From Lysobacter sp. (GTDB taxonomy: Bacteria > Pseudomonadota > Gammaproteobacteria > Xanthomonadales > Xanthomonadaceae), in NCBI GenBank assembly GCA_013141175.1, contig JABFRN010000001.1:1293444-1317443 (forward strand): DNA of 24,000 bases, given 5' to 3'. A program made the position numbers. Shown piece by piece: positions 9,001 to 15,000 of this stretch (the first letter of the stretch is position 1; each line of letters opens with the position of its first letter).

Positions 9001-12000
9001 CTTGGACTCGGCCTTCATGGCCCATCGCCTCGTTTGGCGAAAAATTCGCCAGTTTTCCCTCTCTCCTCTCCGTTCCCTTGGACTTCGCGCTTGTCAAGTG
9101 CAAGCGACGGTTTTGCAATTGCTATGCATATCAACGGGTTATGCTTGGTCTTGGGAGAGCGGTTTTGTGGGGTCAATGCCTATCCAGCGGGATGCTAACG
9201 ACTTGCGGCGCAGCTCAAGCGATATCGCAATCGTGCGCAGTGCGCGGTAGCCTGATCGTAAAGCAACGTAAAGATACCGGGGGTAGATCCCGCCGAGCAT
9301 CTGGACGTACCCAACGACAAAGCGGCGAAGGGATTGTCCGCGCGCTGCTCGACTTGGAGTGAAGGGGTACTCATGGACAGCACGGCTATCGCCGTCATTG
9401 ATCGTCGAATCGAAGTGATCGAAGGCTCGGACGAACAAAAACGCACTATCAGTCGAGTCAGCCAATTGCGGGGCTTGCCCTGTGTCGTTCTGCTCGGTGA
9501 ACCTGGCAGTGGAAAGACAACTGTGTTGCAGTCTGAGGCTCGATGGCAAGGCACCGAGGCGATCAAAGTTCGCGCTTTGACAAATGGCGTTCGAACGCAA
9601 GCCGAGACATTGTTTCTTGATGCACTTGACGAATATCGCAGCGACGGCCAAGCAGCTGACAAAGTCTACGGCCTTGCACACGCGATCGCCGGTGCTGGCG
9701 CGCAAGCATGGTGGCTGAGTTGCCGCGCCGAGGATTGGCGAAAAGAATCCGATCTCCAAGCAATTCAGGCCGTCCGTAACACGACCCACGGCCAACCCAT
9801 CGTCGTCGGTCAGTTGCTTTCCTTAAATCACTGGGAAGCGATCGAGATGCTGCGAGCGCTCGGCGAGGTGGACCCAGAGGCGTTCTTGGATAAGGCCGAG
9901 TCTCTCGGCGCAGAAGCTTTCACACACAACCCTCTCAGTTTGCGCCTGCTGCGCGCCGCTGTTGCAGCCGAGGGGCACTGGCCACAGACCCGCTTTGACT
10001 TGTTCGAGTCTGCAGTCCGGCGCTTGGCGCACGAAAATAATTCGGATCGTAGGCACGATCGCCAGAGGCCATCCCATGAGGTCATCGTCAAGACCGCCGA
10101 TATTGCGAATCTGATGCTGCTGGTATCCGGCGCGCGTGCCCTTTGGCGCTCGGCTGCGATCCCACCCGGCGCATCGGGCGGGCGGCTCGACTACCTCACG
10201 GCGCACGACCTTGAGATCCAGCCAGATTTGCTCCGTTACAGCTTGGATACGGCGTTGTTTCGCGGCGAAGGCGAGGCGTTCGAGCCGATGCATCGCACGA
10301 TTGCAGAATTCACCGCTGCACGGGCGCTCGCACGCGCGGTGCGCGGTGAACCCGGAAGCGCGGCCTTCCCGCTGTCTCGCGCCCTGGCGTTGATCACAGC
10401 TCCTGATGGCGGTCCGCCAACCGAGCTGCGCGGCCTGTTCGCATGGTTCGCTGCCCATCTCGCAAAACTTGGAAATCGTGACGGCACGCAGCAGTTGATC
10501 GAAATTGATGCGCCAACAGTAATGTCCTATGGCGATGCGGCCGTCTTTGACACCCCATGCAGGCGAGCGATTCTTCGCAATCTGACCAAGGCAACGCCAT
10601 ATTTTCGCAGCCGTGAAGGCGGCAGCACATCAGTCGGTGGTCTGGCTGGAGAAGACCTCGCTGCAGACTTCGACGAGATCTTGCGCGCACCTATCGACGG
10701 CACTCAGCGCCATTTTAACGTGCTGGACGTGCTCGCCAGCGGTGCGCCGGTGCACTCGCTCAAGCATCTGTTGCGCGAGATGGTGTTGGACCCGGCCCGC
10801 CCCGGGTGGGTGCGTCGACAGGCCACAGCCGCTTGGTTGAATGGACACCCGCACCCGGCCCGGGGGCGTCGTGATTTATTCGATGCGCTCGCGGCGGAAA
10901 CCGTGTCGGAAAGCCAGGAAGACACTCGATTGAATCTCGTAAACGATGCGCTCGATCCTGCATTGACGACTGCCGACCTACGCCAGTTGATCTCGGCATT
11001 GAGAAACTCCAGTCGCAGTCATACGGTGGGTCGTGCCACGTGGTTGAAAGCCGAGCTTGAAAAACGCCCGCGTCATGATTTGTTCGATATCTCGATTAAA
11101 AACTGGATTCGCGAAAATAGCGGTCCTGACTACAGCTCGGAAATCAACGACCTGCTGGATGAAGCGTTAGCAACGATCATACGAAAAGCCGGTGGCCTTA
11201 CGGCAGATCGTCTTTTGCAATTGGTAATGAACGCTAGCTGGTACGCATTCCCTCACCTTGAAGAAGAATCACAAGCAGCCGTGCGAGAGTGGCTTGATGC
11301 CGATGTTGAGCGCGAACTCGCACTGTTATGGGCAATTAGAGATTCTCTGTCTTCAAATGATAAACCATGGATGGTGGTATCTTGGTTCATAGAAGTTACG
11401 AAGCGAATGCCGAGCGCTGGAACCGGGCATCGGTTATTGTCGATGGCAGACACATGCGCGGATACTGAGCAAGCGCGTCCCATCCTCGATATTGCATTTC
11501 ATTGTGCGAATCACATCAACGCTGATCCTGGTCTTTACTGGCAGCTCTACGAGCACCTGAGTCGAATTCCGGAGATGGCCGACCAGTTCAGAAAACTGCG
11601 CATCCATGAGCTTGAGCCATGGCGCCTCAATGAAATGAAAAAAAGGGCAGAAGCAAGAAAAAAAAGAGAAGCCCAAAGGAAAAAAGATGTTGGAAACATA
11701 ACGCCGTTAATCCCAGATGTCAGAAGCGCGAAACGGCCAAGAATCTTGGAATGGGGCGCACAGCATTACTTTGGTTGGCGCAGAAGCGATTCTGGCGCCA
11801 TACCACCAGGCATGCCTGCCGTGGTCGAAGCGTTTAATTACGAAGTTGCGAAAGCCATTGAAGCAGGCTGGCGTCATATTCTTACCCAAAATTTCGCATG
11901 GCCAAGCGCTATTGATATCGGGCAAATAGATGCACAGAGTAATCATTATTTTGTAGAGCGCTCCGCTCTCGCAGGCTTGGATCTTTCCATGGAGCAAGCA

Positions 12001-15000
12001 GAACAATCAAAACTTTCTGATGTTCCGCTGACGGTCGCGATCTCAGTCCTGAGAGAGAGCAATACGGTTCGACATCAGGCGCGTCGCGAGCGACTGGAAG
12101 CTTGGGCGATTGAGCGAATTTGCAAAGATACAGTAACTGCTGTTGATGCTTTACAGGCATTCTGGATCGCAGCTCTCGATGCCGGCGCGACAGATGTAAG
12201 TTTACTGCCGTGGCTCAATCGTTCGCAGCCCGCCTTGCAAGTGCTCTCTCATGCCCTGCCCTCGTTATTGCGTGCCCGCCCGAGCATGCCTGCTCATGCG
12301 TTGGGTCAAGCATTGTCAGCGGCGGTGAAGTGCGTTCCGCCTTCAGTGCTCCGCGATCTCACCCAGGAGGCGTTGACGAATACTGCTTTGATAGGAAAGT
12401 CACGCCTTTTGTGGCTTTATGCCGATTTTTCTCTCAGTCCGGCGAAGTACGCTGAGCCGAGCGCTGTATTGCCAAGCGAGCGAAACATCCTTGCGGCATT
12501 CGATCTGGCATTGCAGTCAGACGATCTCCTCAATGCTCTGGATATCAATGATGATGCGCATCCGCTTCGACGGGCAATGATCATTGTCGCGCTGGGTCGT
12601 TATGCATCCCCCTCAGCAGACTATCCGAATGCTCGATATTTTCGAACATCCGGTCGGGAAGAAGTCGTTCGTCATTCAATCAACATGCTCGGCGCCATGA
12701 CAGGCAAAGCGGTCACGTCGTTGCTTTCTCAGCTGATCGCTGATCCCAGACTGGAGTCATGGCGCAAAGAACTTGCTCATGCCAAGTTTCAACATCTTAG
12801 GATAGTTCGCGATCAAGCCTTCGCGCACCCGTCACCCCTTGCTGTACGCGAAGCATTGACGGGAAAAGCGCCGGTGAATTCTGCGGATTTACGCGCAATC
12901 ATCCGTGAAGAGCTTTTGCGCTTGCGGCGTGAACTGAGAACTGCGGCCGACAGCCCATGGCGGGAATACTGGGACAATGTCGGTAAACGTGACCTTACGC
13001 CGACACCGAAGCTAGAAAATAGTTGCCGCGATCACCTGATTCTTCGGCTTCGCGACCGAATGCAGCCCTATAGCATTGCGGTTTTATCGGCTGAGATGCG
13101 GCATGCAGACGATAAGCGAAGTGATATCTCGTTATGCAGCCACGCTGGAAGAACTTTTCCGATCGAGATCAAGCGTGACTCGAACGACGGGCTTTGGACT
13201 GCCCCAGCAACCCAGCTTCAGGCTTACGCGAACGCCGATACTGCGGACGGTAGTAGTCTGTATCTGGTGTTTTGGTTCAACCACCGTGATTCGCGGCTTC
13301 CAGCACGGCCAGACGGTGGCGCCAATCCAACGTCTGCGCAGGAATTACAGGACATGCTAGTCACCGATCTACCGGAAGATATGCGGTCGATAGTCGACAT
13401 CATCGTATTCGATGTGTCGGACATTGATGGAAAGTTCGCATCAAAGGTAAAAAAATCTGTGTCTTCCCGCCGGAAATCAAAGTCGGCGCTATGAATGCGT
13501 TTCACTGATTTGGCAAAAATTACATGAACGCGTCTACAGGGCCAAGTGTCCTATGGGGAAGCATCCGCCTGCCCATGTCTGAGAAACCGTTCTGCGCGAG
13601 GTGGCAGTCCGAAGCAGGCGGCAGCGCAGCCAGAGGCATGTTTATCTAGCACGTGCCACGTGTTTGGCAGCGGGCTGATCGAACAGGTCGACCATCTTCC
13701 TGAGCCGGTCCTTGTCGGCCCGGTCCATGCCGACGTATTTGCGGAAGAACCGCAGGTCTTCGGGGGACGCCTTCACGGGCGGCGGCTCACCCAGCAGGTC
13801 TTGGATGGTCACGCCCAGGGCTTTGGCCAGGTCGACCAGGACCTTCGCCGACAGATGGGGCACCTCGCGGTTCTCCAGTTCCCAGACGTAACTCTTGCTG
13901 ATGCCGGCCGCCTGGGCCAATCCCTCCATCGTCAGGCTTGAACTTTTGCGTAGTCGCCTCAATCGAACGCTGAGTGTAGTCGCCATTCGTCTTCTCCCTC
14001 GGCCGGAGGCACCGCTATACGGTGCATGAATATTCATATGTGAATTTTACTAGCCTATGACTTCAGGCGATTGACAACCGTGATGCGAGTTCTAAAATCC
14101 AGATTTTAAGTATGTCGATATCGAACAAGCGTGGATCTGCGGGGCGCTTTATCGGCGAAGGGGATCGCCGACGTAAGGACGAGGTTTACGCTGGAGACAA
14201 ACGTGTCCAGCTCTGTAGTGCATTTGGATTTACTGTTGAAAATTCCGCCTGAGGAAGTCCTTTTCGACTTCCTGGCGCAGTGCGGCCTGCCGCTGCGCTT
14301 TGGCATCGTGGACACGGACGGCTACGCTTACGAGACGCTGCGCATCGCCGCAGCGATCGAGCGCGCGCCATCGCCCGTCCGCGATTGCATTCTGGCGAGC
14401 ATGCGGCACGTCGCCCTGCTGACCGACGAGGCCGGACTGGAGGCATTGCGCGCGGTGAACCAAGCGCACACCGGTCGGGTGAGCGCCTTGCACCTGCCGG
14501 ATGCTCCGGCGCAGTGCGCGCTGTGGATGTACCTGCGTCACCGCGATCTTTTCGATGAAGCCGTCCGCCTTCGCGGAATTTACGCTCAACTGACCGAACC
14601 CATGTTGCTCGACACCTTGCGTCAACCGCTCACCATGCCCGACAACCTGGTCGTGGACAGCGTGCGCCTGTACGAGGCGACCTTGCTCGATGAGGTGACC
14701 GGCGGGGAGATCGCGATCAAGGCGCCCGAGGGCGATGTCCGGGTCAGCGTATTGGACCTGCTGGACCACTGGATGCCGATCGAGAACCCGATGCGAAACA
14801 AGCGATTCAGTGTGGTCGCGGCCAAACTGGGCATCGAGTTTTTCCCGGAGCCCGGACAGATGATCGGTCGCTCGGTGGTACTGGCGCTGAGGAGGCGTGG
14901 CGGCAGCAATCTGGGCGATTTCGACGCCGGTACTCGCGCCCACTTCGAGGCCTGGATGAGTCACTGGCGATTGACGCCGGGTCATGGCGGGCACGCGGGT

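Follow-up and report, generated by a model that had tools for sequence, protein, structure and literature searches.

The gene at positions 9373–13494 of a 24,000-nucleotide stretch of Lysobacter sp. DNA (assembly GCA_013141175.1, contig JABFRN010000001.1, positions 1,293,444–1,317,443; the whole stretch is called the window below) most probably codes for an antiphage pattern-recognition receptor of the NACHT/STAND type that works as a stand-alone unit. The protein is taken to be a divergent member of the EruA family, which is probably Erebus, i.e. Avs10, and we put the probability of this reading at roughly 80%. It consists, in this order, of a predicted nucleoside triphosphatase (NTPase) module, a long alpha-helical solenoid and a predicted nuclease domain. 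A preliminary description, made from the sequence alone, had guessed at a defence function; this guess is well supported by the anatomy of the protein, its conservation and the contexts rich in mobile and defence genes in which its homologues are found.

The features of the gene are as follows (aa, amino acid positions; all on the forward strand).

9373–13494, forward: EruA/Erebus-like NACHT-solenoid-nuclease gene, 1,373 aa plus stop (open reading frame calls, NF058535 alignment)
9478–9822, forward: P-loop NTPase core, aa 36–150 (model strands, conservation, Foldseek)
9496–9519, forward: Walker A motif GEPGSGKT, G42–T49 (sequence)
9610–9633, forward: Walker B motif LFLDALDE of NACHT type, aa 80–87 (sequence)
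9724–9726, forward: sensor-1 residue R118 (sequence and model)
9823–10362, forward: helical and winged-helix domains, aa 151–330, with NPLSL and FEPMH307RTIAEF (model, conservation)
10363–12789, forward: all-alpha HEAT/TPR-like solenoid, aa 331–1139 (model, Foldseek)
11323–12789, forward: distal solenoid, aa 651–1139, the most divergent region
12790–13002, forward: helical linker, aa 1140–1210 (helices 2–10, 16–23, 31–48 and 56–60 of the domain model)
13003–13422, forward: PD-(D/E)xK nuclease-like core, aa 1211–1350 (model, Foldseek, conservation)
13015–13017, forward: E1215, residue of the catalytic set
13093–13095, forward: E1241, residue of the catalytic set
13123–13125, forward: D1251, residue of the catalytic set
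13165–13173, forward: ExK motif, E1265-I-K1267
13213–13227, forward: QxxxY motif, Q1281LQAY1285
13423–13491, forward: basic, K/R-rich variable C-terminal tail, aa 1351–1373 (translation; low conservation)

Assignment to the EruA family

The NCBIfam model NF058535 (release 20; 'NACHT domain-containing antiphage protein EruA', 1318 positions, equivalog cut-off of 1000 bits) aligned with the window protein in one colinear stretch, in which aa 11–1349 correspond to positions 1–1318 of the 1318 of the model (E = 5.7e-247). With the same model, 776–883 bits were reached by ten homologues, from plasmids of Alpha-, Beta- and Gammaproteobacteria (Agrobacterium, Ralstonia, Bradyrhizobium, Mesorhizobium, Sphingomonas, Pantoea and Vibrio), and the cut-off was reached by the Gallionella protein P0350 (1037.7 bits) and by P0376 (1000.0 bits). 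Judged by sequence, the window protein is a divergent member of the known antiphage EruA family and falls in a sub-clade separate from the members that pass the cut-off. The earlier statement that it fits no named family does not hold in view of this end-to-end match and of the annotation PF28130 (DUF8371) in Pfam, which is carried by many homologues. The Pfam scan used here returns no PF28130 even for homologues annotated with it.

A word-indexed search yielded 324 homologues, almost all of them 1,330–1,400 aa long and covering 98–100% of the query, from Bradyrhizobium, Bosea, Methylobacterium, Mesorhizobium and Sphingomonas. When a Nitrospiraceae member served as the query of a second search, Nitrospira, Gallionella, Magnetococcus and Gammaproteobacteria were found in addition. 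The closest relatives are metagenomic proteins with 55–90% identity (P0001–P0009), and a Lysobacter metagenome-assembled genome holds a relative with 60%. With a profile of the last 234 residues, 2,431 cluster representatives (50% identity) were found at E ≤ 1e-3 and 1,003 at E ≤ 1e-30; among the best 150 of the 2,431, the nuclease domain is located at the C-terminal end in all 150. A blastn search of E. coli genomes with a Pantoea homologue gave no match.

The sister model NF058534 (HyoA, 1,430 positions) aligned weakly to the EruA-family proteins P0340, P0350 and P0376, from about position 195 to 1428. Since this alignment extends up to the C-terminal end of the homologues, HyoA probably shares the nuclease; its sequence model suggests the same NACHT-solenoid-nuclease body with about 190 extra N-terminal residues, and HyoA may be a two-effector or adaptor-bearing variant. 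In the literature searched, no defence paper uses EruA or HyoA in this sense and none deals with DUF8371; there, EruA denotes solely an unrelated SlyA-type regulator of E. coli.

N-terminal NACHT/STAND module

An AlphaFold2 model of aa 1–1150, built with a 73-sequence alignment, reached a mean predicted local distance difference test score (pLDDT) of 86.1 and a predicted template modelling score (pTM) of 0.74. It features a five-stranded P-loop core (strands 12–17, 37–42, 79–83, 112–118 and 143–148), followed by a helical domain (153–252) and a small beta/alpha winged-helix-like unit (256–324). In the 73 sequences, G42, P44, G45, G47 and K48 of Walker A and D83, L85, D86 and E87 of Walker B are invariant. 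The same applies to the sensor-1 pair C117-R118 (SCR118) at the end of model strand 112–118, and to F303, H307 and E312 of the winged-helix motif FEPMH307RTIAEF, which comes after model strands 296–305. P187 and L188 of the NPLSL motif in the helical domain are 99% and 98% conserved. In a 121-sequence alignment, G42xPGxGK48, D83xLDE87, R89, C117-R118 and H307 are conserved to at least 95%.

NACHT-type Walker B motifs follow the pattern hhhhD[G/A/S]hDE, with a tiny residue after the Mg-binding aspartate and then two more acidic residues, a definition said to go back to Koonin and Aravind in 2000 and to Leipe and colleagues in 2004. We take FEPMH307RTIAEF to be the counterpart of the FxHxxxQEF motif of NOD-like receptors (NLRs), which carries H443 in NLRC4. 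When the model was compared with the PDB by Foldseek, the top matches were NLRP9 (E = 3.6e-6), NOD2 (6.5e-6), NAIP/NLRC4 (1.8e-5), NLRC4 and Avs3 (8dgc, 2.5e-5). In the Pfam scan of the window protein, NACHT (PF05729) scored 13.0 bits against a gathering cut-off of 26.7, with an alignment limited to the P-loop, and nSTAND3, nSTAND5 and AAA_16 were likewise below threshold. As the Pfam cut-off for NACHT is not reached, the assignment rests on motifs and structure, which together point to a NACHT-type STAND NTPase at the N-terminus. Ahead of the P-loop strand there is room for no more than one strand and one short helix (about 35 residues), so an N-terminal effector is absent.

The preliminary description had proposed a STAND/NACHT NTPase with its P-loop close to the N-terminus and with helical and winged-helix modules behind it, NPLSL included. 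The motifs, the modelled units and the conservation of NPLSL agree with this proposal, and its positions for Walker A and Walker B are exact. The structural check that it had suggested for a STAND fold in this region returned the NLR and Avs3 matches, at E values of 3.6e-6 to 3e-5.

C-terminal nuclease-like domain

A separate model of aa 1140–1373 (pLDDT 84.4, pTM 0.78) shows the nuclease core in the order alpha-beta-beta-beta-alpha-beta, which is the canonical PD-(D/E)xK arrangement. E1215 is placed in the first core helix (76–94 in domain-model numbering), D1251 in the second strand (109–116), E1265 and K1267 in the third strand (122–129) and Q1281 and Y1285 in the next helix (138–147). Of 144 representatives of 50%-identity clusters, 143 retain E1215, E1241, D1251, E1265 and K1267 and 142 retain Q1281 and Y1285, the exceptions being gaps bar one exchange of Gln to Pro. 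This conservation is far beyond chance. The residues of the domain that are at least 95% conserved in the 121-sequence alignment are E1215, N1216, R1219, E1241, R1249, D1251, E1265, K1267, R1268, Q1281 and Y1285.

The best-ranked and the named Foldseek matches, all weak, are mostly PD-(D/E)xK proteins (SfsA, Can2/Card1, McrC, Cas4 SSO0001, EcoO109I, PspGI, NucS, HamA, SduA, Hjc, RecU, Mrr and MmcB). A sequence-profile search of the PDB with the full-length alignment returned generic P-loops only. On the basis of sequence and model, we classify the domain as a predicted PD-(D/E)xK nuclease that carries the QxxxY motif of the RecB type, and we assign it to no subfamily.

A Cas4 identity was considered and rejected. 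The four-cysteine iron-sulphur signature is absent and the domain alignment contains a single conserved cysteine (C1218, in ENxCRD), hence the domain is not Cas4. The preliminary description had called the domain RecB/Cas4-like and had located D, ExK and QxxxY correctly to the nucleotide. The general PD-(D/E)xK fold and the QxxxY motif find support, while Cas4 falls with the missing cysteines and the RecB and Cas4 sequence profiles are unmatched. A K/R-rich tail is found after the nuclease core in most family members, although it is poorly conserved.

Solenoid and presumed sensor

The long sensor-like region noted earlier corresponds in the AlphaFold2 model to an alpha-solenoid of about 800 residues. 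It is composed exclusively of helices, about 45 of them, which continue unbroken to residue 1149 with pLDDT values mostly above 85. Solenoids of the HEAT/ARM type (transportin-3, CRM1, CAND1 and condensin) ranked after the NLRs and Avs3 among the Foldseek matches, and the Pfam scan of the window protein gave one weak HEAT_2 match.

Mean identity to homologues is 0.29 for the distal solenoid, compared to 0.46–0.56 for the NTPase, the proximal solenoid and the nuclease. For the nine closest relatives, the corresponding values are 54% for the distal solenoid and 69–73% for the other domains. The solenoid is presumed to be the sensor, and the pattern of sequence divergence fits a receptor in which the distal solenoid would be the evolving ligand-binding surface.

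A K/R-rich helix, pointed out in the preliminary description, is real (aa 749–784). Basic character is confined to the closest relatives, and as the family at large does not keep the charge, the helix was rejected as a conserved DNA-binding element.

Gene start, leader and base composition

The open reading frame (ORF) runs uninterrupted on the forward strand from its first TTG (9334–13494). ATG 9373 is likely the start codon: GAAGGGG is located 6–12 nt upstream of it, and homologues carry a conserved IDRRV motif at their N-termini with the same start site. From this codon the gene is intact over 1,373 aa, as had been described, and it is indeed the first gene after a tRNA-Arg(CCG). This tRNA gene is a probable integration hotspot 5′ of the large gene. 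The same tRNA-Arg precedes the homologue with 90% identity in locus L020, and a tRNA-Gly directly precedes the homologue in locus L003. When 8.7–18 kb was scanned for att-like copies of the tRNA 3′ end, only short direct repeats at chance level were found, and these define no boundaries for the island.

Apart from indels in the leader, L020 is 89% identical to the window across the tRNA and the large gene. The leader of about 440 nt (8931–9372 in the window, 458–957 in L020) is about 85% conserved though non-coding. A terminator scan revealed two terminator-like hairpins 3′ of tRNA-Arg (8966–8988 and 9034–9052), and the stretch TTGTCAAGTGCAAGCGAyGGTTTTGCAATTGC (about 9090–9122) may be a promoter or operator. 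A 94-codon ORF in the leader (9078–9362) might have been a hidden partner, but indels of 12 and 47 nt interrupt it in L020, so that it is not a gene.

The domains of the large gene have a G + C content of 0.51–0.63 and a G + C content at third codon positions (GC3) of 0.49–0.70, compared to a GC3 of 0.78–0.88 in the flanking host genes for UbiA, DnaE2 and ImuB. The gene is compositionally foreign. The earlier term 'low-GC DNA' is partly right. GC3 is uneven within the gene: the helical/winged-helix part has 0.70 and the distal solenoid 0.49, and the pattern is repeated in the L020 orthologue. An exchange of the sensor/effector part by recombination in the past could account for it.

Genomic context

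In a comparison of 12 homologue loci, none of the neighbouring genes proved to be conserved, which indicates that the large gene works alone. The earlier remark that it has no partner gene agrees with this finding and with the exclusion of ORF 9078–9362. A survey of homologues for defence-island neighbourhoods, proposed in the preliminary description, yielded a mixed outcome. On the one hand, many contexts are rich in mobile and defence genes: a type III restriction-modification system, PLD+MZB and transposases in L003; TIR, PIN-TPR, an integrase and a resolvase in L004; a double-PIN protein of 2,016 aa and HEPN in L013; an integrase and a transposase in L014; a kinase/PP2C pair on a conjugative Agrobacterium plasmid in L015; a RES toxin and an integrase on a Ralstonia plasmid in L016; and Ppl, Abi and recombinases on a Pantoea plasmid in L017. 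On the other hand, three homologues lie among metabolic genes, as discussed below. A homologue is present in 27 plasmid records, 14 of which are conjugative.

A scan of viral contigs revealed one distant relative only, with 27% identity over aa 1–805, and we therefore regard the family as rarely phage-borne. This relative (L019, 7315–9783, IMGVR_UViG_2838054893_000003) begins to match about 7.3 kb into its locus and could be a distant cousin carried by a prophage or a phage.

The other features of the window are listed here.

8854–8930, forward: tRNA-Arg(CCG) (ARAGORN; Rfam tRNA, 67 bits)
8931–9372, forward: non-coding leader/promoter region (terminator scan, comparison with L020)
13642–13986, reverse: capH-like regulator of the XRE family with a helix-turn-helix (HTH), a neighbour and not a conserved partner (PADLOC capH, E = 8.5e-21)
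14131–15024, divergent from the HTH gene: ORF of 297 aa, no family match
15031–15960, divergent from the HTH gene: ORF of 309 aa, no family match, weak Zn-ribbon match
16190–17167, forward: Lit-like (Peptidase_U49) phage-exclusion protease (Pfam PF10463, E = 4.7e-39; PADLOC Lit, E = 8.2e-103)
17284–20382, reverse: DnaE2, error-prone repair cassette
20379–21959, reverse: ImuB-like, error-prone repair cassette
about 21797–22447, reverse: probable ImuA-like ORF, error-prone repair cassette
22617–23606, forward: SRAP-domain gene

The Lit-like gene, which marks the locus as a defence island, is situated 2.7 kb downstream of the large gene and has a GC3 of 0.56; its score with the NCBIfam Lit model (161 bits) is below the cut-off of 274. 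Lit, a phage-exclusion protease, is itself triggered by the capsid, and two capsid-responsive systems may therefore be present in the island. The island is wedged between tRNA-Arg and the host imuB-dnaE2 cassette. In L020, the capH-like gene is replaced by an unrelated gene of 151 aa and the 297-aa ORF is kept with 74% nucleotide identity. A near-consensus sigma-70 promoter is found at 14071–14098, and the region 13642–15960 could represent an uncharacterised cassette of two genes under the control of the regulator, within the same island.

Proposed function and alternative explanations

For the window protein, we infer antiphage activity, oligomerisation, a DNA substrate and the nature of the trigger. 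The following steps are proposed by analogy with solved Avs and NLR systems. In the resting state, an ADP-bound NACHT module (K48, D83/D86/E87, R118 and H307) would keep the protein closed. During infection, the solenoid of about 800 residues would wrap a newly made phage protein, and this binding would lift autoinhibition and permit nucleotide exchange and oligomerisation. Oligomerisation would then join the C-terminal PD-(D/E)xK domains to an active, Mg2+-dependent DNase, which would degrade phage and/or host DNA and thereby abort the infection.

If the link to Avs10 is correct, the leading candidate for the trigger is an HK97-fold major capsid protein, a suggestion that is tempered by the divergence of the sensor and that we hold tentatively, at somewhat less than even odds. 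It is rather unlikely, yet worth considering, that the sub-clade senses a trigger other than the major capsid protein, or that activation uses a geometry unseen in solved STANDs, e.g. peripheral or in-trans dimerisation of the nuclease. Another trigger is conceivable because the sub-clade is only about 28% identical to EruA proper and its central sensor is unaligned; a new geometry is conceivable since the nuclease is attached to the distal tip of an 800-residue solenoid and not to the NTPase hub.

Several results weigh against the proposed assignment. With NF058535, the window protein scored 823.2 bits, which is below the equivalog cut-off of 1000. Its identity to P0350 is 28–29%, in two blocks (aa 1–486 and 824–1349), and aa 487–823 are unalignable to that protein; trigger specificity is therefore not transferable. 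PADLOC v2 gave only a P-loop match to PtuA (E = 0.022) and no system match. The equation of EruA with Erebus and of HyoA with Hypnos is probable, and derives from the paired names and adjacent NCBIfam accessions alone. The homologues in L001, L011 and L012 have ordinary metabolic neighbours with no visible defence genes.

The remaining contrary points concern the nuclease. The Foldseek matches of the C-terminal domain are individually weak (best E = 0.02 in the PDB and 0.006 in BFVD, leading matches 0.02–0.4), no Pfam nuclease family matched at E ≤ 10 in 40 family members, and a sequence-profile search of the PDB with the nuclease alignment returned nothing. Such unmatched profiles and weak folds would suit a defence STAND whose PD-(D/E)xK-like domain is not a killing DNase but an RNA or tRNA cutter or a nucleic-acid-binding or sensing module, with toxicity of another kind; PD-(D/E)xK folds include RNases and non-catalytic binders. 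We consider this improbable. The near-invariant set of E, E, D and ExK (143 of 144 representatives) and of QxxxY (142 of 144) argues for catalysis, no other candidate effector domain was found in the window protein by Pfam scan or in the model, and the basic tail behind the domain fits DNA binding.

A role that is not mainly antiphage would be either conflict between mobile elements (plasmid exclusion or addiction) or signalling in DNA damage and repair beside imuA-imuB-dnaE2. The many plasmid-borne homologues, over half of whose plasmid records are conjugative, would suit the former, and the position of the island next to the DnaE2/ImuB and SRAP genes, together with the adjacent capH-like and possibly damage-responsive regulator, the latter. 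However, none of the other loci examined has the gene next to dnaE2/imuB or to the HTH gene, NCBI curates the EruA family as antiphage, and Lit, Ppl, Abi, TIR and restriction-modification genes are classical phage-defence neighbours, which makes such a role hardly probable. That the gene is a decaying or inactive relic, as its atypical base composition and the lack of direct expression evidence might suggest, is very improbable given an intact 4.1-kb ORF with all catalytic residues, an identical protein in three independent assemblies, a 90%-identical orthologue in the same locus, and an amino acid identity to the L020 gene that roughly tracks nucleotide identity without any frameshift.

Significance

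With the antiphage receptor as preferred reading, the window protein extends a recently named family of antiphage NLRs by a divergent branch that is apparently widespread. As judged from the nuclease-domain profile, the cluster representatives of the family number in the thousands; they come from Alpha-, Beta- and Gammaproteobacteria, Nitrospirota and Magnetococcus (a genus of Magnetococcia). The protein also illustrates neatly, as a natural case, the less common STAND layout in which the effector comes last, and its domain boundaries and catalytic residues are now mapped, so that mutagenesis can build on them. It is of relevance to annotation that similar proteins at present fall just below the NCBIfam equivalog cut-off and are labelled 'hypothetical'. 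The finding opens no new class of immunity and settles no open question; the remaining novelty lies in the trigger and the activation geometry of effector-last STANDs.

Comparison with known systems

Like the EruA proteins described by NF058535, the window protein is encoded by a single gene and combines an N-terminal NACHT module, a long helical sensor and a C-terminal nuclease, as predicted. It differs from them in its score (823 vs 1000 bits), in its 28–29% identity to P0350 and in the central stretch of about 340 residues that is unaligned.

Avs10 (Erebus/Hypnos/bNACHT64) was defined by Lee et al. (Nature 2026, PMC13581612) with reference to Kibby 2023 and van den Berg 2024. Its helical sensor is triggered by HK97-fold major capsid proteins and binds the A-domain face that forms pentons and hexons, and mutations in the effector abolish killing (PMC13581612). 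If EruA is Erebus and HyoA is Hypnos, as the names suggest, Avs10 and the window protein belong to the same family. The trigger may nevertheless differ, because the sensor region is the most divergent part of the window protein.

The canonical Avs/AVAST layout has an N-terminal effector, whereas the sole enzyme-like domain of the window protein besides the NTPase is C-terminal. The preliminary description had implied that this effector-last order is new; C-terminal effectors have already been described for bacterial NACHT proteins (Kibby et al., 10.1101/2022.07.19.500537). In the same study, the effector of bNACHT25 is an N-terminal PD-(D/E)xK nuclease. bNACHT25 and Avs3/Avs4 resemble the window protein in uniting an NTPase switch, a repeat sensor and an effector of restriction-endonuclease fold in one polypeptide. 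Their Mrr-like or Cap4-like nuclease is N-terminal, in contrast to that of the window protein, whose nuclease domain is unmatched by Mrr and Cap4 profiles and whose sensor is unrelated to theirs. Among the Avs families in the cited papers, which do not amount to a systematic survey, solved structures are of members with N-terminal effectors only.

The animal NLRs NLRP9, NOD2 and NAIP/NLRC4 are the best structural matches to the NTPase-helical-winged-helix module of the window protein (E = 3.6e-6 to 3e-5). They differ in having leucine-rich-repeat sensors in place of a HEAT-like solenoid and N-terminal CARD/PYD adaptors in place of a fused C-terminal enzyme, and their sequence identity to the window protein is about 10–13%. 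The NACHT-type Walker B motif D[GAS]hDE and the winged-helix motif FxH...EF are common to both.

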